From UHGV virus genome UHGV-1332848: a DNA stretch of 64,000 bases. One strand, written 5' to 3'. Below are positions 7,698 to 36,360 of the stretch, piece after piece. Numbering within the stretch: the stretch's first letter is position 1; each line of letters opens with the position of its first letter. The position numbers and the translations under genes are program-made. The notes under the pieces were generated by a model. The model saw only the letters and a list, made by a program, of their open reading frames with translations. It was not told the DNA's origin and did not search any database. This stretch comes from a virus.

Positions 7698-8851
7698 ATG
7701 AAAGTTATTAAAAGAGACGGAACAGATGTAGATTTTCAAAAGGAGAAAATAGAAAATGCAATATTTAAAGCTATGAAAAATGGTAGTGGTGTAGTAAAGG
7801 AGAAGATTGCACAAAAGATATCAGAAGAAATACAACAATCTGCAATAAGTGTTCTATCAGTATCACAGATAGAAAAAATGGTTTATGATCTGTTAATTAA
7901 ATATAAACAAAAAGATACAGCTAGAGCATATGAGAGGTTCAGGGCAGTACAAGAATTTAAAAGAAATAATAATACAACAGACGAAAGTATACTAAGTCTT
8001 TTAAATAAAACTAATGAAGATGTTGCTAAAGAAAATTCCAATAAAAACTCAGTTATTGCGTCTACTCAAAGAGATTTGATAGCAGGTGAAGTTTCAAAAG
8101 ATATAGCAAAAAGAAAACTTATTCCAACACATATAGTTCAAGCACATGAAGAAGGGGCAATCCACTACCACGACCTAGATTATGCAATACAAAATATTTT
8201 CAATTGTTGTTTAATAAACCTACAAGACATGCTTGATAACGGGACGGTGATTAATGATAAATTAGTCGAATCACCAAAATCCTTTAGTACAGCATGTACA
8301 ATAACAACTCAAATAATGGCTCAAGTTGCAAGTAATCAGTACGGTGGACAAAGTATAACTATTGCACATTTAGCTCCTTATTTAAGAAGAACAAGAGACA
8401 AAGCATTTAAACATTATTATAATGACTTAGGCTTTGATGTTGAAACTTCTAATAAATTATCTAAAGATATAATGATGAAAGAACTTAAAGATGGTGTTCA
8501 GACTATAAGATATCAGCTTTCAACATTACAAACTACTAACGGTCAAGCTCCATTTGCAACTATTTACCTTGAAATTGATGAAGGTAATGAGTATGAGGAA
8601 GAAATGGCTTTGATTTGTGAAGAAATGATAAAGCAAAGATTAGAGGGCATGAAAAATTATAAAGGACAAGAAATAGGAGAGGCTTTCCCAAAACTTGTTT
8701 ATTTATTAGATGAACACAATTGTCTTGAAGGTGGAAAATATGACTACATAACTAAATTATCAGCTAAGTGTACAGCAAAAAGACTTGTTCCAGACTATCA
8801 GTCGGCAAAAATTATGAGAATGAATTATGAAGGAAATACTTTCCCACCGAT
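7698..8851 (+). CDS. nrdD: anaerobic ribonucleoside-triphosphate reductase NrdD, exon 1
   Basis: N-terminal ATP-cone (VIKRDGTDVDFQKEKIENAI); RBS AAGGGAGG. The ORF frame runs into a stop at 8858, just after the inferred 5' splice site (U8851). Confidence 0.75.
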
Positions 8852-9737
8852 AAACTAAAACTGTCGCATATAGTAGTGATATTATATGAAAACCCATCTA
8901 AACGGAGAAAGTCCTATATAAAGGATAACTCACCGTACTAAATTGTTGAATATTTAAAAATTAATTAAATAGGAGGTGTTATATTGTGGAAAGATATTCA
9001 AAATTGGGAAGATTTATATGAAGTTAGCGATACTGGGGAGGTTAGAAATAAATTATCCAATAATTTATTAGTTGGTGATATTAATAACGCAGGTTACTAT
9101 CGTGTATGTTTATATAATAAGAACCACATACCGCCAAAACAAAGGTTCTTTAGACATAGACTGGTGGCAAAACATTTTATAGATAACCATAAAAATCTAC
9201 CTCAAGTAAACCATATAGATGGTGATAAATCAAATAATTCGATGAATAACTTAGAATGGGTTAGCCCAAAAGAGAATGAAATACATAGTAGAAAAGTTAT
9301 TGGCGTAAAAGAATATAAACCATTTGCTGTAGTTTTTGATAATGGTAAAACCATTGTTTGTAATTCAAAATCAGAATTAAGCAATGAAATTGGGTTAACA
9401 AAAACTTCTATAAAAGAATGGTTGCATAAAGGTAACACCGGTTATTTAAAAAGAGGGATTAAAGATATATACTACATATAAAGTAAAAGTATTCAACATA
9501 AAAGTCTAAAGACTAACGAAAACAATTAATAGAGAAACACTATTAAGGGAATGAGTAGTGTAGAGCCACAAGCTTATGGTGGTAAGGCACGGGAGATAAG
9601 ACCTTTTAAATCGAAACGATGGGGCTCTTATCAATGGTAACAGTTGTAAGAGTGTGATATAGTCTAATATCTTATGGTAACATAAGGAAGTTCATAAGAG
9701 AACTGTACAACAGTTGCGATGTTGTATGAATATTATG
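8852..9737 (+). mobile_element. group I self-splicing intron interrupting nrdD, carrying a homing-endonuclease ORF
   Basis: Splicing U8851 to G9738 gives ...FPP-M-GCRSHVG...GRFNQGVISLNLPQIA. This matches, from memory, the conserved NrdD block (E. coli ...SPMGCRSFLG...GRNNLGVVSLNLPRIA). Intron ends in G (9737) and exon 1 ends in U. A structured GC-richer RNA segment lies at 9481-9737. Confidence 0.65.
8984..9481 (+). CDS. HNH homing endonuclease (NUMOD4 + HNH_3), intron-encoded
   Basis: NUMOD4-like WEDLYEVSDTGEVRN. HNH core VNHIDGDKSNNSMNNLEWVSPKEN. Own RBS AGGAGGTG. Confidence 0.85.
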   Translation: MWKDIQNWEDLYEVSDTGEVRNKLSNNLLVGDINNAGYYRVCLYNKNHIPPKQRFFRHRLVAKHFIDNHKNLPQVNHIDGDKSNNSMNNLEWVSPKENEIHSRKVIGVKEYKPFAVVFDNGKTIVCNSKSELSNEIGLTKTSIKEWLHKGNTGYLKRGIKDIYYI

Positions 9738-10701
9738 GGGATGTAGATCACATGTAGGATGTGGTTGGAAAGATGAAAATAACAACTATAAGTTTTACGG
9801 AAGATTTAATCAGGGTGTAATATCGTTGAATTTACCACAAATAGCAATTCTATCTAATGGAGATATTGAAACATTTTGGGATATACTTGACCAAAGATTA
9901 CAACTGTGTAAAGAAGCATTATTGGTTAGACATAATCATTTAATTGGAACTCTTTCAGATGTTTCACCTATTCATTGGCAACATGGAGCAATAGCCAGAC
10001 TAGATAAAGGAGAGAAGATAGATAAATTACTGCAAAATGGTTATTCTACACTTTCATTAGGGTATGTTGGTGTATGCGAGATGACATACGCTATGTTAGG
10101 TGTAAGTCATACGACACTTGAGGGTGAGAGGTTTGCTTTGGAAGTAATGAATCATATGAATGAAGCATGTCAAAAATGGAAAGATGAAACTGGATTAGGC
10201 TTCAGTCTATATGGCACTCCAGCAGAAAATTTAATATATAGATTTTGCAAACTAGACAAGCAAAGGTTCGGTAATATACCAAATGTAACAGATAAGTTAT
10301 ACTATACTAATTCTTATCATGTTCATGTTTGTGAAGAAATAGATGCATTTAGTAAATTAAAATTTGAATCTCAATTCCATAACATAAGCCTAGGTGGATG
10401 TATTTCTTATATAGAAGTTCCTGATATGAGCAAAAACTTAGATGCAATTGAACAAATTATAAACTTTATATATCACAATATACAATATGCAGAAATAAAT
10501 ACTAAACCAGATATCTGTTATAAATGTGGATTTACTGGTGAAATAAAGAATGATGATAACTTAGAATGGTATTGTCCTAATTGTGGCAATAGAGATGAGT
10601 CAGAAATGCAAGTAATGAGAAGAACTTGTGGTTATATAGGGACTAATTATTGGAATAAAGGAAGAACTGCTGAAATAAAAGATAGAGTAATTCATTTATA
10701 A
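9738..10701 (+). CDS. nrdD: anaerobic ribonucleoside-triphosphate reductase NrdD, exon 2
   Basis: Glycyl-radical motif RRTCGYIG near C-terminus; CPNCG zinc ribbon. The table ORF 9826-10701 is the in-frame tail of this exon. Confidence 0.75.
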
Positions 10702-23927: not shown

Positions 23928-24021
23928 GTAATATTAATTATTACGAATATTGGTATCACTAATATCTTTTATATTCGTACTCATATTTTATCGTTAGTGC
24001 GTAATATGTTTCTATTATTAC

Positions 24022-24453
24022 CTACATATTTCTATATTTTATTACCTTTGCAGGAGATCCAACTGCTACAGCGTTATTTGGTATATCTCTAGTAACAACG
24101 CTATTAGCCCCTATTATTACATTGTCGCCAACAATCACATTCCCTATAATTTTCGCACCAGCACCTATTACTACACTATCTCCAATTCTTGGAACTTCCT
24201 TTTGACCTATACTTCCTCCAATAGTTACTTGTTGACTTATCTTACAATTCTTCCCAATGATAGCATTGGGATGCAAAACTATTCCTAACCCATAATATCC
24301 AAAGCTTGTACCTTCTCCGATTTTTGTCTGGTATGGTATAACACATCCGAATACTATTCTCATCAATATTTTTATTAATTTAGGAATTACAGGTATTTTA
24401 TGTTTATATAGAAAATGTGACATATTATACAAATAGTTTATTATTTTAATCAT
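24022..24453 (-). CDS. hexapeptide-repeat O-acetyltransferase (CysE/LacA/NodL family, short form)
   Basis: LYKHKIPVIPKLIKILMRIVFGCVIPYQTKIGEGTSF...IGKNCKISQQVTIGG aligns with the serine-acetyltransferase C-terminal region. Left-handed beta-helix hexapeptide repeats follow. Confidence 0.7.
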   Translation of the reverse strand: MIKIINYLYNMSHFLYKHKIPVIPKLIKILMRIVFGCVIPYQTKIGEGTSFGYYGLGIVLHPNAIIGKNCKISQQVTIGGSIGQKEVPRIGDSVVIGAGAKIIGNVIVGDNVIIGANSVVTRDIPNNAVAVGSPAKVIKYRNM

Positions 24454-24526
24454 CCCCTTTAAAATTCTTATTAATCTTATTCACACCTTCTATTTTACAA
24501 TGTAATTGAATTTGTTACAACTTTTG

Positions 24527-26026
24527 TTATTCTGCATTAAATATAATCTCTTTAGTTATGGTTGCAGTAGATTTATCTAAGAAGCTTGTAGATGCTCTTC
24601 TTACAGTATTTTTTACATTTATAAACTTAATCAAGTTGTGTGTACCTGTTAAATACAACATTGTTGTACTATCATTTGTATAAGTTCCATTCATAATTAT
24701 AGTATTTAAAAATGAAATATCATCAGAACCGCTTGATGATAATAAATAGCTTCCACCAGTTCCATTTATCCATATTGTACAACCAATTATTTTAAATTCA
24801 CATTTGTTATTTATTCCAAATCCCCCGTATGGAGACTTTCCTCTATCGTAATAAATTGAGCAATTTTCAAAGTTGACATAACATTTCCCATTAGAATTCG
24901 TTACCAATCTATTACAGCTATCCTCTATAATTGAATTTCTAATAGTTATTTTAGTATAAGATATACCGTTATTTTCTTTATTAGCTTCTACAAAACTTGA
25001 ATTAACAAGGTTATTAGAGTTGTAAAATACACAATTATCGACTTTAACATTAGAAAGTTCACCTAAAACAATATTTATATTGCTTATGTCAGAATTTTTA
25101 ATGGAAAGTTTAGTTTCCTTATCAGTTGCCCCATACTGAGTCAGTTTTATACCTGCTCCACTAGATATGATAAAACTTCCACTTTTTGAAGTAATAATAT
25201 TAAGATTATCTATAACCGCATCACTTGTTCTAAACACCTCTATTGGATTGAAAGGTAATCTGCTTCCTGTTACTATCATTTTACAATCCTGTAGCTTTGC
25301 ACCACTTATAAATGATTTTTTTCCACTGAATTTAACGGGGGTTTGAGTCGAATTATTTAAATAAGATGGTCTTAATACGTCCAAATCAACAATCCAAGTT
25401 ACATTCTTGTATACTATGTTATGTAAACAAGTTGCATAACCTTGCTGTTGAATTATACAATTTTCTACAAGTAAGTTACTAGCAAAATTAACGACCTCAT
25501 TATCATTTAAACTTCCTATATTTATTACTGATTGGTATGCTTTTCCCTTTGTATAAATATTTTTTATAGTTACATTAAATTCTGTTATTTTTGTACTATC
25601 ATATCTAAAATAAAATAAATCATAAAAATCAGTATCATCTGTGAGTGTTATTTTAGTTGTATCGACCGTAAAGTCTCGATAACTTGAATCATGCATATTT
25701 AAACATTTAAAAATACCACTAACACCATTTGGAGAATTATTATCTAAATATATAACAGTTTCTTCACCAGCACCAATTAAATCAATGTTAGGATAAGCTT
25801 CTATAAAACAGTCTCCTTTAGAAGTTTTAGTTTTAAAATAGTAATTCTCTTGATTAAGTTTTATTTTTCCTTTCTTGCCATTTAAATAATCGTATGCTCT
25901 TTGGAGTCTAGGTGCATCATCCATTTCTAGTGTCAATCGTGGAAACTGATTAATATTTACTGTTGCAATATGTTCCAATGACGCACTATGTTCTTTTATT
26001 TTACTTTCTACTTCTCTGTATAACAT
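24527..26026 (-). CDS. tail fibre / receptor-binding protein with right-handed beta-helix (pectin-lyase-like, putative depolymerase)
   Basis: Asn/Ile/Val-rich repeating beta-helix pattern. First 18 aa identical to protein 30159-31472. Confidence 0.55.
   Translation of the reverse strand: MLYREVESKIKEHSASLEHIATVNINQFPRLTLEMDDAPRLQRAYDYLNGKKGKIKLNQENYYFKTKTSKGDCFIEAYPNIDLIGAGEETVIYLDNNSPNGVSGIFKCLNMHDSSYRDFTVDTTKITLTDDTDFYDLFYFRYDSTKITEFNVTIKNIYTKGKAYQSVINIGSLNDNEVVNFASNLLVENCIIQQQGYATCLHNIVYKNVTWIVDLDVLRPSYLNNSTQTPVKFSGKKSFISGAKLQDCKMIVTGSRLPFNPIEVFRTSDAVIDNLNIITSKSGSFIISSGAGIKLTQYGATDKETKLSIKNSDISNINIVLGELSNVKVDNCVFYNSNNLVNSSFVEANKENNGISYTKITIRNSIIEDSCNRLVTNSNGKCYVNFENCSIYYDRGKSPYGGFGINNKCEFKIIGCTIWINGTGGSYLLSSSGSDDISFLNTIIMNGTYTNDSTTMLYLTGTHNLIKFINVKNTVRRASTSFLDKSTATITKEIIFNAE
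25971..26026 (-). repeat. 56-nt direct repeat copy B (47-nt identical core) = 5' end of beta-helix fibre gene
   Basis: TGTTCCAATGACGCACTATGTTCTTTTATTTTACTTTCTACTTCTCT is identical to 31417-31463. Confidence 0.9.
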
Positions 26027-26041
26027 TCGTCATTCACCTCC

Positions 26042-26317
26042 TTATTCCTTAGCCAAGATCACAATTTTGCAGTTCATAGGCTCACCATTGTAAATCTTTA
26101 TTGTATTTGAATCAATTATTTCTATATTATTCATTGACAGGGAAGTATTATCTTTAAAAATACTAATTGTCAAATTATCAGTTCTTAAATTATGAGTTAC
26201 ATTAGTTGTATATTCATTTCCAATCAAAGTCCAATCAGATATAATCACATTCTTAATTGACTGTTTTATATTTCCTCCTCCAGAGAATATGCCGAATCTA
26301 AAATCATTTATAAACAC
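26042..26317 (-). CDS. hypothetical protein (91 aa)
   Basis: ORF tightly upstream of fibre gene. Confidence 0.4.
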   Translation of the reverse strand: MFINDFRFGIFSGGGNIKQSIKNVIISDWTLIGNEYTTNVTHNLRTDNLTISIFKDNTSLSMNNIEIIDSNTIKIYNGEPMNCKIVILAKE

Positions 26318-26325
26318 ATCACCAC

Positions 26326-26619
26326 CTACATTCCTAACAAGATATCATAATTAGTTCCTACAGGAGCTTTAATTTTTAAACTAACCCAAGGAACAAAATT
26401 ATCTAAAATAACAGATTGACCACTTTTAATTTTTATACTTGAAATGCTATTATTTATAGTTCCAACAAATTCACAGTCAGCATCAGCCCAAAGAGTAGCA
26501 TAATAAATATAATTTTTATCATACTTACCTTTAAATAATTCTTCTTCAGCAGAAGTAGTAACTCCGTATTTTTTAATTAATTTTTCATATTGGGTATTAA
26601 AATGTATTAAATTTGCCAA
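26326..26619 (-). CDS. hypothetical protein (97 aa)
   Basis: ORF with RBS. Confidence 0.4.
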   Translation of the reverse strand: MANLIHFNTQYEKLIKKYGVTTSAEEELFKGKYDKNYIYYATLWADADCEFVGTINNSISSIKIKSGQSVILDNFVPWVSLKIKAPVGTNYDILLGM

Positions 26620-26768
26620 AAACCCACCTACTTTCTTAAATTTTAAAAATTCACACCTCCAAGAATGGCTATATTACTAGCTTTCAGGAGTTGAATTTAT
26701 TTATAAAATGTTGATTTTAACAATTGTATCAAAATAGGGTAGAGAGTTAGCCCTACCCGTAAAAATTA

Positions 26769-27239
26769 TTAAACTTGATATTTAACTTCAGCTAAAACTT
26801 CTTCTATTTTCACCTCGATATATGAATTTATATCTTTTATTCCACCATTTAAAATATCTAACGTCCCATCTGTTAGTTGATTTAATACATTTTCTTTTAC
26901 TTGAACAGCAAGGTGTTTTAATTCTTCCTTGTCAATCTCTCCATCAAGCATAGCCTTTTCAATTAATTCTTTCTTAAGTGTGTTTTCCATAGCGATTATA
27001 TTTGTTTGAATTAATTTTTCAGTTTTCTCTATAGCGTTATTAAACATAGCCTGAACTCTTTCGTCTTCTAGTCTAGCAACCTCGATTTTAGCCTTTTGTG
27101 TAGCCTTAGCAACCCATAAACCAATATAAGCAGTAGCAATAGCGATAAGACCTCCTAAGACAACTGATAGTAATTGTAAAGCACTTTCTTGTAACATTTC
27201 CATTGTAAAATCCCTCCATTTAATTATTTTTATTGACAC
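26769..27239 (-). CDS. holin-like membrane protein (single N-terminal TM + coiled coil; LL-H-type)
   Basis: TM LLSVVLGGLIAIATAYIGLWVA then charged coiled coil; resembles Holin_LLH architecture. Confidence 0.4.
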   Translation of the reverse strand: MSIKIIKWRDFTMEMLQESALQLLSVVLGGLIAIATAYIGLWVAKATQKAKIEVARLEDERVQAMFNNAIEKTEKLIQTNIIAMENTLKKELIEKAMLDGEIDKEELKHLAVQVKENVLNQLTDGTLDILNGGIKDINSYIEVKIEEVLAEVKYQV

Positions 27240-27357
27240 CTAGACTCAACTAGGTTAAAATACACTTGTTAGAATAATCCATTTCTAACGTAATAGGAGT
27301 TATATCCTATTACCTCACATCAGTGTAATAGGTTTTAGCATTACCTATTGCACTTTT

Positions 27358-27675
27358 TTATTTATCTAATTTATTTTTTATATCAGTTACATCTTTTTTA
27401 ATTTCTTCCATAACGTCAAACTTATCAGCTAGATCAGAAATTATTTCTTGATTTTTATTTATAATATCCTGATTATTGTTTATTATCTCTTGGTTCTTGT
27501 TTATCGTATTTTGCATTTTTTCTTCTCTATTTTTACTTTCCAGTTCCCTTTCCCTACTTTCTTCTCTAGTATCCTCAACAAGTTTGTTATAGTCTTTTCT
27601 TTGATAAAACCACATAATAGCCATCAATCCCAAGATAGGACTAGATTTAAATATATCTACAAACATTGATTCCAT
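27358..27675 (-). CDS. membrane protein with tandem heptad repeats
   Basis: N-terminal TM (ILGLMAIMWFY) then coiled coil with NKNQEII x3 encoded by 21-nt DNA repeats. Confidence 0.4.
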   Translation of the reverse strand: MESMFVDIFKSSPILGLMAIMWFYQRKDYNKLVEDTREESRERELESKNREEKMQNTINKNQEIINNNQDIINKNQEIISDLADKFDVMEEIKKDVTDIKNKLDK

Positions 27676-27804
27676 TCAAATACCTCCTTATTTATGTTTT
27701 ATTTTTATGTTTCGTAAGGAGGTATTGAATAGTGATTTTTACTATGCAAAATAGTGATAGGGCAATAATAAATTTCATTTTAACCGCCTCCTTTTTTTAA
27801 TTTA

Positions 27805-28860
27805 TTATTTCTCAAATAGTTTATTAGCTTCTTCAGAATCGTCTCTTAAATCATAATGATTTGAAGTGGTAGAAATATCATTATGTTGACCAACATATTT
27901 GCTGACTACCTTTATATCTTTACCTTGTTCTAACAAATATGTTATAGCACTAGCTTTAAATAAGTGAGGATTTATTCTTCTGCCTAATATATCTGATAAG
28001 GTATCAGAACAAAAGAAATCAGCCCATTCCAAACCTATTTGGATAACTTCATCTTTGAACTTTTTAGCAAATATATATTTACTTTCAAAACCTCTTTTTT
28101 CTAACCACAACCTACAATACTTCAAAACTTCTTCATTAGCCATATATCTTACACGTTTGCCGTCATCAGATTTACCTTTTTCTCTAACGTAATTTGTATT
28201 AACGAACGTTCTACCTTCTGGAATTTCTTGGTATACAAAACTGGTTTCAAATTGTCTTATTCCTCCACGTCTAGCACCAGTATTAAAAGCACACACAACC
28301 CAAGCTAATCCCATGTAATTTTCATCATCCATTAATGTTTCTTTTAATATTTCATATTCTTCTTTAGAGATAGGTATTTTCTCATAAACATGGTTTTTGG
28401 GAATGTCTTTAAATGCTTTTGTAAAGTTTCTAAAATTCTTATATTCTTCAAAATCATCATCTTCAGCAATTACATCTTCTATATACGCACATAGAGTACT
28501 AACTGATGATTTTTTAAATCTCAAACCTGAACCGCTCATCCCTCTATTTGTTAAATAACTCATATACCTATTAAAATCTCTTTTCTTTATTTTATATAAG
28601 GGTTTATCATTACAAGATGAATATATCCAATATATAAATTGCTTTAATCCTGATATATATTGTCTTTTAGTGGCTGGAGATAGTTGAGGATTCATTTGCA
28701 AAAATTCTTCCATCATATCTCTATTTTCTTTATTACACAAGTTATACATTTCATCCGTTACTGAAGGAAGTTTTAATGCTCTTTCTCTAATCATATTTTT
28801 ATTTATTGTCAAATAAATACCTCCTTTATGTTTAATTTCGCATTTTATTTCGTTTTTCAA
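27805..28860 (-). CDS. tyrosine site-specific recombinase (phage integrase family)
   Basis: C-terminal catalytic region with conserved R (TGARRGGIR), H-x-x-R (HLFKASAITYL) and terminal Tyr (SNHYDL). N-terminal SAM-like core-binding domain. Confidence 0.85.
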   Translation of the reverse strand: MKNEIKCEIKHKGGIYLTINKNMIRERALKLPSVTDEMYNLCNKENRDMMEEFLQMNPQLSPATKRQYISGLKQFIYWIYSSCNDKPLYKIKKRDFNRYMSYLTNRGMSGSGLRFKKSSVSTLCAYIEDVIAEDDDFEEYKNFRNFTKAFKDIPKNHVYEKIPISKEEYEILKETLMDDENYMGLAWVVCAFNTGARRGGIRQFETSFVYQEIPEGRTFVNTNYVREKGKSDDGKRVRYMANEEVLKYCRLWLEKRGFESKYIFAKKFKDEVIQIGLEWADFFCSDTLSDILGRRINPHLFKASAITYLLEQGKDIKVVSKYVGQHNDISTTSNHYDLRDDSEEANKLFEK

Positions 28861-29006
28861 ACTTAACCATATATGACCATATAGTTATTTTAAGGCTTTA
28901 TAAATAACCTTTATTACTCTTAGCCATATTCATTTAATCAGCATTTATTAGATATTTTTTATAACCATGTTGAAAAATATTTAACCATATAGTATAATTT
29001 GCTTAA
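28861..29006. promoter_or_regulatory. repeated AACCATAT(A/G) motifs next to the recombinase gene (candidate arm-type or operator sites) plus TATAAT -10 for the divergent ORF
   Basis: Four copies of (T)AACCATAT-like motif at about 28862, 28872, 28922 and 28985; TAGTATAAT at about 28990. Confidence 0.35.
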
Positions 29007-29258
29007 ATGATGCATATACTAGGAGGTTACATTTTGTTTAATATAAATGGTTATCAAATAAAAGAGGGGAATGAATATCTAAAACACCCAAGAACAAAGG
29101 TCACAACAACTATAAGAAGTGAATATTACACAGAATATAAAAAGTTGATGAGTGCGATAGGTGAAGAATATTGTAAGGGCTTTGATATAATGATTGAATT
29201 ACTAAGTCAAAACGAAGAATTACTAGATGAATTTGTATCAAGAGTTAAAAAATACTAA
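29007..29258 (+). CDS. small protein transcribed divergently from the recombinase (candidate excisionase/regulator)
   Basis: Only + strand gene in the late arm; RBS AGGAGG; likely start TTG/ATG near 29031. Confidence 0.4.
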   Translation: MMHILGGYILFNINGYQIKEGNEYLKHPRTKVTTTIRSEYYTEYKKLMSAIGEEYCKGFDIMIELLSQNEELLDEFVSRVKKY

Positions 29259-29394
29259 CTCAATACATAGTTTATATAACTACAACATGTAGTAATCAAA
29301 ATATATAAAACTTCAATTTTAAATAAAATTCAAATTAGTAATTATAAGTACAGTAGGGGAGTTAAAATTTAAATTCTCCTACAAATCAACCCTA

Positions 29395-29961
29395 TTATTT
29401 TTGCTTTTTCTTTTTTAATTTATTATTCCTCAACGTTTCTTCACGCTTTTTAGATTTTGCAATTTCTTTAATGGCAGTTTCATATAACAATTCCTCATCG
29501 TATTCACAATCATAAAATTCTATTCTTGATCCTTCAATTCCTTTATGGTATTCAACGGTGATAGTTAATTCTTTTATGCATAAATAACTATCATCAACTA
29601 ATACGCCACTAGCTTCAGCAGTAAGACCATCTAAAATCATCTTCGGAGTATAATTGTCAATATCTTTTCTCCTTGAAGTAGAATTGTAAACCACATATTT
29701 ACATTTACAATTTGATATTCCTAAATCTTCTAAGCCATAATGTTTTACCACATAAACAACGAAATCTTTCCAGTCTTGTTTCAGTTTATTCATAGTTATT
29801 CTCTGCAAAATCACCCATTTATTCAAAGATGGATGACTAGGGTTATCTATTGGTCTTTTTTTACTTCTTGGATGCTTTTTAAAATATTCTTTTGTCCAAT
29901 TCTCCAAAAGTTCCTCCGTAAACTCTATTACTATTTTTTCATTATTCATCCTTAACCTCAT
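29395..29961 (-). CDS. RusA-family Holliday-junction resolvase-like protein with Lys-rich tail
   Basis: RKDIDNYTPKMILDGLTAEASGVLVDDSYL...KELTITVEY matches RusA catalytic block ([25 protein letters not shown]...LELTITEM). Confidence 0.6.
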   Translation of the reverse strand: MRLRMNNEKIVIEFTEELLENWTKEYFKKHPRSKKRPIDNPSHPSLNKWVILQRITMNKLKQDWKDFVVYVVKHYGLEDLGISNCKCKYVVYNSTSRRKDIDNYTPKMILDGLTAEASGVLVDDSYLCIKELTITVEYHKGIEGSRIEFYDCEYDEELLYETAIKEIAKSKKREETLRNNKLKKKKQK

Positions 29962-30158
29962 TTTCTATTTCAATATAAAATGACTAGCCAAATCAATGAC
30001 TAGTCAAAGTATTTAATTAATTATTTTATTGCGTAATATTTATCAATTTACTAGTAATAACACTTGCTAGGTGAGCTAATTTCCTTATAACTATCATCTT
30101 TATCCCTCGCCTAGCATTATTTTTTATAATAAATAAAAAAGACTAGCTTTCACTACTC

Positions 30159-31472
30159 TTAGATTCCACCACCAAATATTGAATTATAAGCTTCTTCATA
30201 CATCTCTATATGACCATTGGCGTTCGGATGTATTTTATCTTCTTGTAATAATGTTAAATCATTTTTAAAAGTATTAAAGAAGTCTATACAGATAATTTTT
30301 TCTTTAGAGCATAATCGTCTCACTTTATTATTATACTCTATTATCCAAGCCCAACTTTGACTATTTACAGCCGAGGTATTTTTTGTTCTATCCATAGGTG
30401 GGCAAGTACAAACAACTGGAATTGCTCCATTTCCTTTACATTGCCATATAGCTTGTCTTAATTGATTTATTGCTGTATTAATATCAGTACCAGTACCATC
30501 AATTCTTGAATTATTTGTACCACCAAGAATAGTTACTAAATCATAACCTTTAAGTATATTATTAACTACCTGACTTAATATAACTTCCATATTTGAGCCA
30601 CTAACTGCAACATTTTCACTTTGAACTTCTGCATTTAATTCTTTAATTTTATTATATAATAAAGTAGTCCATCGTTCTTCTGTATTTACTCCTGCTCCAA
30701 ATGTTAAGCTATCTCCGACATGAAGAATTTTATCTACTTTGTTAGGTAAAATATCGAATTTATATTCCTTAACCCAAGGATTTTCAAATACTATATTTTT
30801 AATCCATGTATCTATATTTGTAGACCCATTATAAATACCAAATCCAAATAATCCTATACTTTCTCTTAAAGTAAAACAACTTGAGACATCTTCATCGAAT
30901 AAAGCACTCCCATTCATATAAACACTAAATCTAGTACCTATAAATCTAACAGATAGATTTATACCTTCACCATTTTTCGGAACAATTTGATTAACATCAT
31001 AACTAATTGCTTTAGCTCTTTCGAAAGCTCCATTTGTAGTTTTACCTAGCCAAAGTTGTTTAAAATTAAAAAATAATAAGCATGAAAAGTAATCTGTTTT
31101 ATTTTTCCCTTTAAAATTTATTGCTACAGCATTGTTGTCCGTAGAATTTATATCAAATCCTTTTATTGTAACTCCTATTTCACCATCTTGAATTAACTTA
31201 GTCTTATGAAAAATATTCACTCCATGAGTATTAAATTGAGTGAAAGTAGGTTTAAGTGTTTCATCACTGAATATCCAATCGCCCTGTTCTTGATTAGGTG
31301 TTAACCAACAACTTTTTTTCCAATCTTCTTGACCATTAAAAAGATTTATAAATTCTAATTTTGTTCTATTTATTAGACTTGATACATTATTATTTTCTTT
31401 ATTTATAGTATTCATTTGTTCCAATGACGCACTATGTTCTTTTATTTTACTTTCTACTTCTCTATATAGCAT
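30159..31472 (-). CDS. tail protein with C-terminal SGNH/GDSL hydrolase (esterase) domain
   Basis: SGNH blocks I (ILHVGDSLTFGAG), III (ILGGTNNS) and V (DKIHPNANGH). N-terminal 18 aa identical to fibre 24527-26026. Confidence 0.7.
   Translation of the reverse strand: MLYREVESKIKEHSASLEQMNTINKENNNVSSLINRTKLEFINLFNGQEDWKKSCWLTPNQEQGDWIFSDETLKPTFTQFNTHGVNIFHKTKLIQDGEIGVTIKGFDINSTDNNAVAINFKGKNKTDYFSCLLFFNFKQLWLGKTTNGAFERAKAISYDVNQIVPKNGEGINLSVRFIGTRFSVYMNGSALFDEDVSSCFTLRESIGLFGFGIYNGSTNIDTWIKNIVFENPWVKEYKFDILPNKVDKILHVGDSLTFGAGVNTEERWTTLLYNKIKELNAEVQSENVAVSGSNMEVILSQVVNNILKGYDLVTILGGTNNSRIDGTGTDINTAINQLRQAIWQCKGNGAIPVVCTCPPMDRTKNTSAVNSQSWAWIIEYNNKVRRLCSKEKIICIDFFNTFKNDLTLLQEDKIHPNANGHIEMYEEAYNSIFGGGI
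31417..31472 (-). repeat. 56-nt direct repeat copy A = 5' end of SGNH tail protein gene
   Basis: identical 47-nt core plus 3 mismatches in the first three codons; sequence diverges abruptly beyond the core. Confidence 0.9.
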
Positions 31473-31504: not shown

Positions 31505-32515
31505 TTATATAGCCAAAGGCGTCATGTATCCATAACACACTGTATCAGTATTCAAATCTTTTGATATATTACTTTTAACAAATAATTTATATCCAGTTGC
31601 ATTATAATCTATAGCACCTGATAAATCACCATATGTGATACTTGGACTTAAATTTTTACCATCTATAGTTCTGTCATTTAAATTAACAACAAATGGATTG
31701 ATTTTACCGTTATATAAATTAAAACTTAATAAAAAAGTAGCTGAATTAAAAGTACCCGGGCTAACAACTCCTCCGATAGATATTAAATATTGCTTATTTA
31801 AAAGATTTTTTGCAGGTTCATTAATTAAGTCAGTTGACAAATAAATGTAATTTGAACCTAAAAGTCTATAAGGATTCAATTTAATTCTTTTGGTTAGCTG
31901 ATAATTTACAACATGGTTAATTCCATTAATGTCATTTTCTAATACATTTATCTCTGTTTGTATATTGTTTTTTAGTTCAACAAATTCAATATTTACATCA
32001 TTAGTTTTTTGAGTAACTAAATCCTTCATATTTATTACAGATTGATTGATATTATTTAAATCACCTCGATAAGAATTTAGTAAATTATTTAACTCTCTTA
32101 ACGTTTCAATATCTTCTCTGGATTCAACAATTATGCCGGTAGCCATTGATTTAACAACATTAACCACGAATCTTTGGAGATTAATAGATTCATCTCCATC
32201 CTCAATTAATAAACAACATATATTTCTACCTTCAACATTGAATATATCAACTCTGGGGTAAAGTTTTACTATACCATTTGGGGCATCAACTATATTTATT
32301 TTTTCTATTTGTTCAAAATATTCACCATTAGATTTTACTCCTACAAACCTGCATGTAGCTCCAGTTATATCTTTAGGCAGATTGTTTTCTTCTATATTTA
32401 TAGTTATCTCAATGCTGTCGCCTACAACTGCAACAAAATCTTTTATACTTAATATGTTTTGTTTGATTGTATCTAATTTTATATTTAACTTTTTTGCTAT
32501 TATATTTTCAGGCAA
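31505..32515 (-). CDS. baseplate / receptor-binding-complex protein (BppU-like N-terminus)
   Basis: N-terminal domain then Asn-rich coiled coil then C-terminal beta domain; position between endolysin and fibre genes. Confidence 0.45.
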   Translation of the reverse strand: MPENIIAKKLNIKLDTIKQNILSIKDFVAVVGDSIEITINIEENNLPKDITGATCRFVGVKSNGEYFEQIEKINIVDAPNGIVKLYPRVDIFNVEGRNICCLLIEDGDESINLQRFVVNVVKSMATGIIVESREDIETLRELNNLLNSYRGDLNNINQSVINMKDLVTQKTNDVNIEFVELKNNIQTEINVLENDINGINHVVNYQLTKRIKLNPYRLLGSNYIYLSTDLINEPAKNLLNKQYLISIGGVVSPGTFNSATFLLSFNLYNGKINPFVVNLNDRTIDGKNLSPSITYGDLSGAIDYNATGYKLFVKSNISKDLNTDTVCYGYMTPLAI

Positions 32516-32546: not shown

Positions 32547-33413
32547 TTACCTATTTATAGTTGCATTTTTTCTTATATATGCTCTAGTTCCATCTATATC
32601 TAAAGCATAATATCCGCTCATTTCAAATCTTGCAGTTATTAATTCATCTTTATAGAAAGGTTTAATTTCTTTTTCCCAAACCCTACAAGGATAGTCTATT
32701 ACTTGAAGTCTAAACCTTCTATATCTTTCATCAGTTCGTCCTAATAACTCTACATTAGCCTTTTCTACCCAACAGCGTTTCCCATCAAACTCTATAGCAT
32801 ATGCCCATTGATTTTCTGCATCAGAAGTTAATAAATCGCCCTTATTGAATATCTTAACTTCTCCATCATATGACATTGCATCTGAACTCATTTTCAAAGG
32901 TAGCGGGAAACTAGATTTAACATCTGTATCAAGTTTATTTAACTCAGCTTGAATCATATTTAAGAATCTTTGCCACCCCATATCCAAAGTTCTGTGAGGA
33001 CAGTACTTTCCACTAAAATCTTGATGTTTCTTTACTTTATCTATTCCCCAACCTCTTTCCTTTAGTATTTCAGCAACCAATTCAGCACAATTCCTTTCAG
33101 CTTTATCAAACCTTTCTCCGCCTGATCTTGAATAACAAATTTCTATACCTATGTATTTTCTATTACCTCTTCCACTTCCACCATCGCCAGTATGCCAAGC
33201 ATTTCTATTAAGTGGCAACCCTTGAATAGCACACACATCATCTACTGCAATATGAAAGCTTACTTCGTTATTATTGCTTTGCATATAAGCTATTTCATTT
33301 TCAGCACTTGCATCATTGGCTGTGTTATGAATTGCTATACCTTCAGCTTCCATTGGATAAGGGCACTTTATGTCGTACCTATTTGATGATATAAGTTTTT
33401 GTATTATTTTCAT
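32547..33413 (-). CDS. N-acetylmuramoyl-L-alanine amidase (Amidase_2/PGRP) with C-terminal cell-wall-binding repeats; endolysin
   Basis: AIHNTANDASAENEIAYM...AWHTGDGGSGRGNRKYIGIEIC...KHQDFSGKYCPHR zinc-amidase motifs; duplicated SH3-like C-terminal halves. Confidence 0.85.
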   Translation of the reverse strand: MKIIQKLISSNRYDIKCPYPMEAEGIAIHNTANDASAENEIAYMQSNNNEVSFHIAVDDVCAIQGLPLNRNAWHTGDGGSGRGNRKYIGIEICYSRSGGERFDKAERNCAELVAEILKERGWGIDKVKKHQDFSGKYCPHRTLDMGWQRFLNMIQAELNKLDTDVKSSFPLPLKMSSDAMSYDGEVKIFNKGDLLTSDAENQWAYAIEFDGKRCWVEKANVELLGRTDERYRRFRLQVIDYPCRVWEKEIKPFYKDELITARFEMSGYYALDIDGTRAYIRKNATINR

Positions 33414-34407: not shown

Positions 34408-36360
34408 TTAAAAATCACCACCTTCTATTAAAAAATCAGTTGTCATTAAATCAACACCCAAATCCATTTGATCTCTAAATTGCATTATTGATGTGGCACT
34501 GTAAGATATTATTGCAACATTATTATTGTGGGCATACTTAATTAAATCTTCAGTTACATAATTGGTTGGAGTTGATATGAATGAGTTTCCTAAAACTATA
34601 CAATTATCAATATTTGAGTTGCTAATGTTTGCATTATAACCCAACATTATGTTTTTATCTTTATTTCTTATCTCACTCAATAATGTGTAGTTAAAGGATA
34701 AAAATACTACTTTATCTCTAACTTTATATTTGTCTATAATAGCGAAAAGTTTATCGTAATTATATATAGTCCCTTTTAGTTCTAAAAATAAATATTTATT
34801 ATATCTTTGAAGTATTTTTAATAAATCTTCTATTTTGGGTATTCTTAAATCAGTATAATAGGAAGGATTGCCATCGCCCCCATCTATTTTTAGGCTACTT
34901 ATATAATCATAATTTAAATTCTCAACTCTACCAGTTCCATTAGTTGTTCTATCTAACGTATCGTCATGTATTATTACAAATTCGCCATCTCTCGTTTGAT
35001 ATATATCAACTTCAACCCCGAACATCCCAATTTCAAAAGCCTTCTCTACTGCAAATGCTGTATTTTCTGGATATATATGACCTAATCCCCTATGTCCTAT
35101 TAATTTAGATTTGGAATTTTTTATAATATTAAAAAAATCTTTTTTATTTTTTTCATTTATTATATTACCAATCTCAATAGTATTTTCATTGATTCTCTTA
35201 TCAATATCATCAATCTTTTTAGTTAATTTTGTAGTTCCATCCTGCATAAATACTGCATCTGAATCAGTAACTGGATTTTCTAACAAACCATTCCCATCTT
35301 TTAATCTAACTTTTTTTGTATCAACGCCTATACTATCACTAGCAAATTCTTCAACATTAGTTCCAAATAAAGCATTACCTTGATAATAACTAGCCGAAAG
35401 TACCACTTTTATATTTGGGTGTTCAGCACTATTCCTTATTAAAATATTGTTTTTATCAATTATCTTACAATCTGGGAACAACAATTCATCCAAAACACTA
35501 TCATACATAACTACATGTAGTTCTTTACTATTCATATTATGTGTCCAAGTATATTCATTATTTACAAATTGAGATGCTCCAATAATTAAACTTTTATTTC
35601 CTGTTGCATTAATTTTATCTACAGAATCTTTTCCACTCGCAATTGTTTGTTGTAATACCAAGTTTGTCTGTGTTGCCGATTGATTTGTATTTGATAAGGT
35701 TGTGTTTGTATCCGTAGCACTGTCTATAGATTGGTCTAAATCTTTTTTCTTTTGTGTAGCGGTATTGTTTGCATCAACTAGACTAGGTAACAAAGTATTG
35801 CCTTCTTGTATATTTTCTTTCAAATTTGTATTTAATGGTGTTCCTACCCTTATGTCTTCAAGCAAATTTTCATGTAATATAGTACCAGTTTCTATATCTT
35901 TCTCTAATCTTTTTAATATAGTTACAGAATCTCCAAAGAGTTCCAAAGCTCTTAATCCCTCGTATCCTTTATCTATCAACTCTTGAAGTATTCTAACCAC
36001 GTTATCTTTATTTTTATAGAATATTCTATTGGTTGAAAGTAAAGTTACTCCTAATGAGTTGTATCTAAATTCCAGCGTTCTTCCCTTTAAATTAGGATGA
36101 AAATAAATTAGCCCATCTTTTGTTATATAATAATTATTTTCACTCTTATATACATCATCCAAGTTGTCGACTTCCATCATATTATCTCCATCAACTATTG
36201 TCACCCCTTGATATGTTTCTGGTGTACCAGTTAATTGTACGAGGTTTTTATCAGATGAAACTTGTTGTTGTTCCACCATTAATTTAGCATAAGGTCTATC
36301 GTTTTCATCTAAGAACCATCTGCTTATAATGGAGTTTTCATATCTATCCTCTATACTCAC
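34408..36360 (-). CDS. tail-associated glycerophosphodiester phosphodiesterase (GDPD domain)
   Basis: C-terminal IGHRGLGHIYPENTAFAVEKAFEIGMFGVEVDIYQTRDGEFVIIHDDTLDRTTNG is a canonical GP-PDE catalytic block; N-terminal structural domain. Confidence 0.75.
   Translation of the reverse strand: MSIEDRYENSIISRWFLDENDRPYAKLMVEQQQVSSDKNLVQLTGTPETYQGVTIVDGDNMMEVDNLDDVYKSENNYYITKDGLIYFHPNLKGRTLEFRYNSLGVTLLSTNRIFYKNKDNVVRILQELIDKGYEGLRALELFGDSVTILKRLEKDIETGTILHENLLEDIRVGTPLNTNLKENIQEGNTLLPSLVDANNTATQKKKDLDQSIDSATDTNTTLSNTNQSATQTNLVLQQTIASGKDSVDKINATGNKSLIIGASQFVNNEYTWTHNMNSKELHVVMYDSVLDELLFPDCKIIDKNNILIRNSAEHPNIKVVLSASYYQGNALFGTNVEEFASDSIGVDTKKVRLKDGNGLLENPVTDSDAVFMQDGTTKLTKKIDDIDKRINENTIEIGNIINEKNKKDFFNIIKNSKSKLIGHRGLGHIYPENTAFAVEKAFEIGMFGVEVDIYQTRDGEFVIIHDDTLDRTTNGTGRVENLNYDYISSLKIDGGDGNPSYYTDLRIPKIEDLLKILQRYNKYLFLELKGTIYNYDKLFAIIDKYKVRDKVVFLSFNYTLLSEIRNKDKNIMLGYNANISNSNIDNCIVLGNSFISTPTNYVTEDLIKYAHNNNVAIISYSATSIMQFRDQMDLGVDLMTTDFLIEGGDF

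Follow-up and report, generated by a model that had tools for sequence, protein, structure and literature searches.

The late region of UHGV virus genome UHGV-1332848 raises the question whether a direct repeat on either side of a recombinase gene marks a mobile segment or a part common to two proteins. In the 64-kb stretch of DNA analysed here (the window), two late-arm genes, one for a 499-residue β-helix tail protein and one for a 437-residue tail-associated SGNH esterase, begin with the same 18 residues, MLYREVESKIKEHSASLE. This identity had been noticed in an earlier account made without database searches (the sequence-only reading) and was found again in both open reading frames (ORFs). 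The same account proposed that a recombinase encoded between the two genes excises and re-integrates the intervening 5.5-kb segment, and mentioned as a simpler alternative a short N-terminal attachment peptide on two co-resident tail proteins. Comparison with relatives favours the simpler alternative and extends it: most probably, a conserved N-terminal docking or neck peptide carries interchangeable enzyme bodies, and the cassettes encoding them are exchanged by homologous recombination in the flanks. The coordinates of the features are compiled in Table 1.

The repeat and its peptide

The 47-nucleotide (nt) core of the repeat, AGAGAAGTAGAAAGTAAAATAAAAGAACATAGTGCGTCATTGGAACA, has exactly two copies in the window, both on the − strand, so that the repeats are direct, as had been stated. 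No match to the core is expected by chance (0 in 100 shuffles, even with 3 mismatches allowed). The block common to the two genes covers 56 nt, in which the sole differences are three synonymous mismatches in codons 2-3, and the similarity of the genes ends 1-3 codons past the core. The genes listed between the repeats by the sequence-only reading were recovered as well: the body of the SGNH gene, a RusA-like resolvase, a small + strand gene, the recombinase, two holins and two small ORFs.

The window has a GC content of 28%. Its early arm (1-23.3 kb, + strand) carries nrdD/nrdG, thymidine kinase (TK) and methyltransferase genes, and its late arm (− strand) carries those for the terminase, the portal, a 1721-residue tape measure, the tail-tip protein and the tail enzymes. 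Terminases of Bacillus siphophages of the Basilisk/Slash type share about 26% identity with that of the window. A megablast search of INPHARED with positions 22-36 kb gave zero matches, hence no described close relative in that collection, and tblastn with both tail enzymes gave weak partial matches only. Rfam had no match at its gathering threshold anywhere in the window.

The comparison set comprises about 25 related contigs (L-numbered) of a siphophage lineage of about 130 kb. They were collected by DNA scans with a degenerate pattern of the peptide, by exact look-up of the 91-residue protein encoded upstream of the β-helix gene, and by way of the TK gene, which yielded ten contigs. Since TK lies outside the region, this last route is unbiased for or against the recombinase block. 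Among the contigs retrieved by exact-protein look-up is a source-like one, NODE_1 of ENA ERZ807474 (130,278 bp). Protein searches were unsuitable for a census with a query as short as 19 residues, and the census is made up of DNA pattern scans and exact-protein look-ups; a profile built from 12 peptide N-termini retrieved one 69-residue fragment, and phmmer with 30 residues against 1.84 billion representatives gave a single match (E 8.6e-4). The gene order of the relatives is invariant: TK, a 51-residue ORF, slot 2 (the position of the β-helix gene in the window), the 91- and 97-residue proteins, holin, holin, recombinase, small divergent gene, resolvase, slot 1 (the position of the SGNH gene), BppU_N protein and endolysin. 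Genome-length relatives measure 128-137 kb, differ in their start points and never exceed 200 kb; they are therefore read as free phage genomes of about 130 kb with no sign of integration. A prophage attL/attR interpretation of the repeats was rejected on the same grounds. The phage of the window is of gut type, and its lineage consists of undescribed, uncultured phages of anaerobic Bacillota, siphoviruses of Gram-positive-type hosts.

In the comparison set the peptide was found on over 20 bodies, which differ in their Pfam domains. Its variants result from synonymous and conservative changes: MLYREVEQEIKRHSVSLEE in slot 1 of L008, MLNREIESKVREHSASLEQ in slot 1 of L009, MLYREVEQEIKRHSASLEQ and MLYREVEEKIRSHSASLEE in L018, MLYREVEQEIRRHSESLEQ in L019, and forms ending in SLDQ in L022 and L027. 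Residues M1, L2, R4, E5, E7, H13, S14, S16 and L17 are invariant. L008, L009, L018 and L019 each have two copies that are unlike in DNA as well as in protein, and the peptide is conserved at the protein level across these diverged genomes. Conservation of the protein alone was what the sequence-only reading had named as speaking against its proposal; these four genomes display it, while the 47-nt core itself is identical in 15 copies. The window's two copies are also more alike over these 47 nt than the copies of any of the four, as would be expected if the repeat were a functionless remnant of a recent tandem duplication or gene conversion in one genome. Such an origin is very unlikely for a peptide that sits on so many bodies in so many contigs, with nine invariant residues and conservative substitutions at others.

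Enzyme cassettes at two slots

Breakpoints of similarity with the relatives delimit the exchanged units. With L001, blastn gave a 94% match over window positions 29387-25968, to the exact end of the peptide, followed by nothing until similarity resumed at 24017; the unit swapped at slot 2 is thus 24018-25967, comprising the β-helix body and an acetyltransferase gene. With L002, the slot-1 breakpoints are at 31410 and 30048. A second common boundary, which the sequence-only reading had missed, is a motif of about 24 nt after the stop codon, TAATTGAAACATATTACGCAMTAA, which closes the cassettes with canonical ends. Its consensus is TAATTGAAACATATTACGCA(A/C)TAA, and it follows most cassettes in both slots, one- and two-gene cassettes alike; the sequence 5′ of it is specific to the cassette, and that 3′ of it to the slot. 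Slot 1 of L008 and of L009 has degenerate versions. Taken alone, the motif is unexceptional in the window (2 matches versus 1.1 expected, at ≤3 mismatches), and its significance comes from its position at the breakpoints in relatives.

One cassette was found in both slots. The cassette of a 745-residue fibre in slot 2 of L001 is 91.5% identical over 2260 nt to that in slot 1 of L002, with homology from the ATG to ...ATATTACGCA; the same cassette has thus been placed in either slot, bounded by two short common sequences. The sharp boundary emphasised by the sequence-only reading holds as a cassette junction at the population level, where unrelated bodies follow the same peptide, and fails as an att core.

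Cassettes consist of one to three genes, and each begins at a start codon with the 18-codon peptide. At least ten different enzyme bodies were found for each slot across the relatives, among them SGNH esterases, CE4 deacetylases, β-helix and pectin-lyase-like proteins. Slot 2 holds the 499-residue β-helix with the hexapeptide acetyltransferase in the window, and elsewhere the 745-residue fibre, a 508-residue GDSL protein, polysaccharide deacetylases of 470 and 558 residues, an 823-residue GDSL_2 protein, a 718-residue protein with a Wzy_C protein, a 725-residue protein, a 494-residue pectin-lyase-like protein with an Acyl_transf_3 protein, and a 480-residue protein. Slot 1 holds the 437-residue SGNH protein in the window; other occupants are the 745-residue fibre, a 538-residue deacetylase, a 599-residue GDSL_2 protein, a 500-residue pectinesterase-like protein, proteins of 722 and 489 residues, a GDPD protein, and a protein of at least 521 residues accompanied by a hexapeptide acetyltransferase. 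Bodies other than SGNH are present at slot 1 in L002, L003, L008, L009, L018 and L019. The slot is empty in L027, is taken by a fused BppU_N-peptidase M14 fibre of 1106 residues in L005, and in L001, L022 and L026 is occupied by genes without the peptide.

In the 437-residue protein the GDSL/SGNH domain covers residues 248-427 according to Pfam, with the PF13472 match at 252-421. The 499-residue protein has no Pfam match. Its AlphaFold model (predicted local distance difference test score, pLDDT, 84; predicted template modelling score 0.86) is a right-handed β-helix, with structural matches to the tailspikes of HK620, CBA120 and Sf6 and to AlgE epimerases.

Genes that modify surface polysaccharides (hexapeptide acetyltransferase, Acyl_transf_3, Wzy_C) are frequent within the boundaries of these receptor-binding protein (RBP) cassettes. 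That an RBP and a modifying gene share one cassette suggests that recognition and modification of the receptor come as matched pairs.

Similar junctions occur inside fused fibres. Residues 398-412 of the 1106-residue fibre of L005 form the junction-like sequence KKIDDISASLEQNK, about 60 residues past an Ig-like domain homologous to the 91-residue protein. In P0005 the sequence ...DIEKINSSLEQ|IATININQFPRL joins the window's β-helix body to an anchor of the BppU_N type, and in P0003, P0004 and L028 the same body sits on YomF_N anchors; altogether, P0003-P0007 have it joined to other anchors. From these junctions and anchors, the sharp boundary is a general domain boundary of this fibre family. 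YomF_N anchors define a third class of tail enzymes, represented in the window by a 650-residue YomF_N+GDPD protein. In relatives the class includes YomF_N+β-helix proteins (loci L028 5581-10610 and L027 12050-12301), and the slot-2 β-helix body was seen at 75% identity on the YomF_N anchor of another phage, so that bodies move between anchor types.

A candidate for the receiving structure is encoded directly upstream of slot 1. The AlphaFold2 model of this 336-residue protein (pLDDT 83) has strands in residues 8-121, a helix of about 80 residues (126-206) and a β domain (210-336), which is the BppU architecture of an N-terminal Ig-like domain, a helical linker and a C-terminal β domain. Its top PDB matches in Foldseek are the TP901-1 BppU chains of 4v96, over the full length and with E 1.6e-10. 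By this model, the protein has a BppU-like fold. PDB searches by sequence were uninformative for the 499- and 336-residue proteins, and a fold search was required. In TP901-1 and Tuc2009 the C-terminal domain of BppU grips three trimers of BppL by their residues 2-30 (PMC4742702), and N-terminal docking peptides of 7-29 residues are known from the exchangeable secondary RBPs of K1E/K1-5/SP6 and of Klebsiella phages of the KP32/KP34 type (PMC6872550). By analogy, we infer that the 336-residue protein is the docking partner of the peptide. In L027 the BppU-like gene is present, slot 1 is empty and the sole peptide-bearing RBP is in slot 2, an arrangement that fits one adaptor serving both slots. 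Slot 2 follows two small conserved tail-protein genes. The product of one, the 91-residue protein, is identical in 24 contigs and resembles the Ig-like domain in residues 272-339 of the 1106-residue fibre (BLASTP E 2e-4).

Several observations weigh against a docking peptide whose cassettes move by ordinary homologous recombination. The canonical core is unchanged in its 15 copies at synonymous sites also, and even the diverged variants keep the stretch CATAGTG..TCATTGGA unaltered. Selection on the protein alone would not demand such invariance, which could stem from repeated homogenisation by recombination or from a function at the DNA or RNA level. Residues 2-16 of the peptide are helical in the AlphaFold2 prediction but at a pLDDT of about 50, and the helical hydrophobic moment, reached by 2477 of 20000 shuffles (12%), is not significant; an amphipathic helix is therefore not claimed. 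Slot 2 is not adjacent to the gene of the BppU-like protein, and the 24 nt of homology at the 3′ end are short for classical homologous recombination.

The shortness of the 3′ motif speaks also for a dedicated exchange, in which core and motif are recognised by a site-specific enzyme or by a short-homology pathway aided by the RusA-like or DUF1064 protein. Both boundaries are common to the two slots and enclose one to three genes per cassette, synonymous sites in the core do not vary, and a Holliday-junction resolvase gene of either type lies nearby in every relative seen there. In addition, TAGTGCGTCAT of the 5′ core (25977-25987 / 31423-31433) matches TAGTGCGTAAT, the reverse complement of the slot-2 3′ motif (23995-24005), at 10 of 11 positions, around a GC-rich hexamer with few occurrences in the genome. 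This inverted match shows no covariation in the slot-1 variants of L008 and L009 and is therefore taken as unexplained or coincidental. Moreover, the exact nucleotide of the boundaries varies: L002 has 9 nt beyond the core in common with slot 1 of the window, slot 2 of L005/L016 has an extended 3′ flank of slot-1 type, and the slot-1 cassette of the window carries 110 nt of additional 3′ sequence. The junctions in fused fibres are similar at the protein level and lack repeated DNA, and neighbouring modules are exchanged at gene boundaries as well, which makes the mosaicism general. A dedicated exchange is thus considered unlikely. There is a slim chance that core and post-stop motif are the recognition ends of an undescribed phage system, driven by the resolvase or another enzyme, which captures and moves RBP-enzyme cassettes; if so, captured cassettes, surface-modifying genes included, would move between slots and genomes as a phage host-range 'integron'.

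According to the docking-peptide explanation, MLYREVESKIKEHSASLE would mount interchangeable carbohydrate-active enzymes on the tail tip at two positions, slot 1 after the BppU-like adaptor gene and slot 2 after the two small tail-protein genes. Both resident enzymes carry the same peptide, hence the common 5′ end of their genes. New combinations would most likely arise when co-infecting relatives recombine homologously in the conserved flanks, and selection would keep the junctions at the boundary of peptide and body. For moves from slot to slot, the only homology available would be the 47-56-nt 5′ block and the 3′ motif of about 24 nt. The 5.5-kb stretch from one repeat to the other, with the genes for the resolvase, the recombinase module, the holins and the small tail proteins, would be conserved backbone and not mobile, and the tyrosine recombinase an independent module with candidate sites of its own.

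The block between the repeats

Direct repeats, a sharp boundary and a tyrosine recombinase gene in between had led to the proposal that the cores are attL/attR-like sites, that the resident recombinase excises a 5.5-kb circle and that re-integration swaps host-range modules. This is extremely improbable. The block of resolvase, recombinase and holins is kept in 10/10 of the contigs found through TK, and the predicted core-to-core deletion is present in none of these ten. When relatives were compared for the presence of the segment at 26.0-31.5 kb, as recommended by the sequence-only reading, those with just one peptide-bearing gene (L001, L005/L010, L022, L026 and L027) were found to retain the recombinase block, and an empty site with a single core and no element genes was not seen, L001, L005, L022, L026 and L027 all keeping recombinase and holins. 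Both holin genes would be lost on excision as well. The core is without dyad symmetry, its copies are not identical in L008, L009, L018 and L019, and the recombinase has a separate cluster of sites next to its own gene.

The recombinase itself exists as two alleles at one position, which have no significant BLASTP similarity to each other; both accompany the identical 47-nt core and 3′ motif, which is a further argument against excision at the cores. Allele A, that of the window, is weakly Xer-like and has HLFK (residues ~290-295) where XerD and XerA have HxLR, so that the second catalytic Arg is replaced by Lys, again unfavourable to the excision proposal. Its protein is identical in L001 and near-identical in L004/L006; with this substitution, yet conserved, it may have an atypical activity, to judge from its sequence. 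Recombinase and small divergent gene are swapped as a unit for the unrelated allele in relatives. The small divergent proteins of the two allele types are 34% identical, and the intergenic sequence accompanying the other allele is different. In the window this intergenic region contains five co-oriented AACCATAT/TAACCATAT-like sites, with the window's only two exact copies of TAACCATAT; the cluster is a plausible candidate for the recombinase's own recombination site or operator. An extra 329-residue gene that overlaps the start of allele B was observed together with a 57-residue gene in L012 (2647-3845), L014 (381-1579) and L026 (7660-8858). These two genes have no Pfam match on record and may encode a second recombinase or an accessory factor.

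Wherever this part of a relative was seen, slot 1 and the recombinase module are separated by a RusA-like or DUF1064 gene; the DUF1064 protein takes the resolvase position in L009, L022 and L026. Upstream of the resolvase gene, the conserved sequence 29962-30025 (−) contains two copies of the palindrome GACTAGTC (TTGACTAGTCATTGATTTGGCTAGTC). Its equivalents in L002, L003, L008, L009 and L027 are kept with either gene, and the region is probably an operator or promoter.

Exchange at gene boundaries affects the neighbours too: endolysin, holins, RusA versus DUF1064, and the recombinase alleles. At the endolysin position (window 32547-33413 (−); L001 2170-2997; L002 5685-6503) either an Amidase_2 protein of 288 residues or an unrelated Amidase_3 protein of 272 residues is encoded, and both holins also exist as alternative alleles. 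The region at 24-34 kb is a mosaic of gene-sized alternatives. Throughout the window, AATAATTAATTAAA occurs 29 times versus 1.8 expected, in every case in the orientation of the surrounding genes and for the most part between genes (for example at 2422, 3363, 7630, 11726 and 20565 on the + strand and at 30012, 47645, 53228 and 63343 on the − strand). It is probably a promoter or an element of the 5′ untranslated region, and may also supply homology for module exchange.

Outside this region, an ORF for an HNH homing endonuclease interrupts nrdD, which is thereby divided into two ORFs (7698-8858, 8984-9481 and 9826-10701, + strand); no Rfam intron was found for the split gene at gathering score. 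In L018, a reverse-transcriptase (RVT_1) ORF adjoins an nrdD fragment. With HNH in the window and RVT_1 in L018, nrdD looks like a preferred target of selfish elements within the lineage.

Table 1. Location of the features discussed (window positions unless a contig is named)
Feature	Coordinates	Strand	Remarks
5′ repeat copy 1, first 18-19 codons of slot-1 gene, MLYREVESKIKEHSASLEQ	31417..31472	−	core 31417-31463; found in relatives too
5′ repeat copy 2, first 18-19 codons of slot-2 gene, MLYREVESKIKEHSASLEH	25971..26026	−	core 25971-26017; found in relatives too
Slot-1 cassette gene, 437-residue tail-associated SGNH/GDSL esterase with N-terminal peptide	30159..31472	−	Pfam PF13472, 9e-22
Slot-2 cassette gene 1, 499-residue right-handed β-helix, tailspike/depolymerase-like, with N-terminal peptide	24527..26026	−	AlphaFold2 model
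Slot-2 cassette gene 2, hexapeptide-repeat acetyltransferase	24022..24453	−	Pfam PF00132, 5e-17; inside swapped segment 24018-25967
3′ junction motif of slot-1 cassette, AAATTGATAAATATTACGCAATAA	30026..30049	−	homology to relatives restarts here
3′ junction motif of slot-2 cassette, TAATAGAAACATATTACGCACTAA	23994..24017	−	L001 homology restarts at 24017
BppU-like baseplate adaptor, 336 residues, directly upstream of slot 1	31505..32515	−	Pfam BppU_N (PF10651), 3e-16
Two small conserved tail proteins, 97 and 91 residues, directly upstream of slot 2	26042..26619	−	phrog_13479 tail fiber, 3e-9
Two holin genes	26769-27239 and 27358-27675	−	phrog_36209 holin, 5e-16; PF10960 BhlA, 3.5e-6
Xer-like tyrosine recombinase	27805-28860	−	PF00589 and SAM-like domain
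Five co-oriented AACCATAT/TAACCATAT-like sites	28864-28990		between recombinase start and 83-residue gene
Small divergent gene, 83 residues	29007-29258	+	
RusA-like Holliday-junction resolvase	29395..29961	−	phrog_34, 7.5e-10
650-residue YomF_N+GDPD protein, third tail-enzyme class	34408-36360	−	YomF_N anchor
Polysaccharide-modifying genes within cassettes	window 24022-24453; L013 1688-2185; L020 11757-12773, 18416-18910; L011 4656-5942		

Comparison with known systems

Integrons, shufflons and invertible tail-fibre segments (Mu Gin, P1 Cin, R64 Rci) resemble this locus in having a constant 5′ part, alternative modules and a recombinase nearby, and an integron- or shufflon-like system had been suggested for it by the sequence-only reading. 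The suggestion did not hold. A palindromic site of the attC type is lacking, the 3′ motif having just an AT stem of 5-6 bp (GTAAT..ATTAC), and the two dissimilar recombinase alleles that occur with identical core and motif leave no cognate integrase. A shufflon has inverted repeats and inverted isoforms, whereas the repeats here are direct and the relatives are uniform in orientation and order.

Phage modules are exchanged at conserved intergenic linkers or regulatory repeats, as described by Botstein's modular theory and exemplified by the promoter-stem-loop cassettes of T4-type phages. The gene-sized swaps at short conserved boundaries and the co-oriented AATAATTAATTAAA copies across the genome are of this kind, except that the 5′ boundary is intracoding here and encodes a predicted functional peptide.

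The tripod of TP901-1/Tuc2009 (PMC4742702, PDB 4v96) is similar in the BppU_N domain, long helix and C-terminal β domain of the adaptor, in the RBP gene directly downstream, and in the short conserved N-terminus and variable distal part of the RBP. The heads differ, BppL of TP901-1 being small and lectin-like and the bodies found here being enzymes of 437-823 residues (SGNH, CE4, β-helix), and a second slot lies away from the adaptor gene.

The locus provides a new and well-resolved case of a known process, the modular exchange of RBPs on a short N-terminal docking peptide, in an undescribed lineage. It offers a clean natural map of plug-and-play host-range design in uncultured phages: an 18-residue tag and a BppU-like adaptor appear sufficient to mount at least 20 enzymes acting on cell-wall polysaccharides at two positions. 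This is of direct use for RBP engineering in Gram-positive siphophages and for the prediction of host range from metagenomes. It also illustrates that a direct repeat flanking a recombinase gene can be a by-product of protein modularity and not the mark of a mobile element.

The closest known counterparts are the 'anchor-branch' RBPs of K1E/K1-5/SP6 and of Klebsiella phages KP32/KP34 (Latka et al. 2019, PMC6872550), in which likewise a tiny N-terminus alone is common to otherwise unrelated bodies. Their docking peptides have 7-29 residues, and that described here has 18. Two RBPs per virion (here read from the genes) and the horizontal exchange of bodies at the junction are further similarities. 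In contrast to those phages, the present ones are siphoviruses of about 130 kb with Gram-positive-type hosts, and the putative partner of the peptide is BppU-like, not a T4gp10-like branching domain or gp37. The RBP genes of the present phages lie 5.4 kb apart, with lysis and recombination genes between them, and their cassettes end in a 24-nt 3′ motif common to both slots and can include an acetyltransferase or Wzy-like gene.

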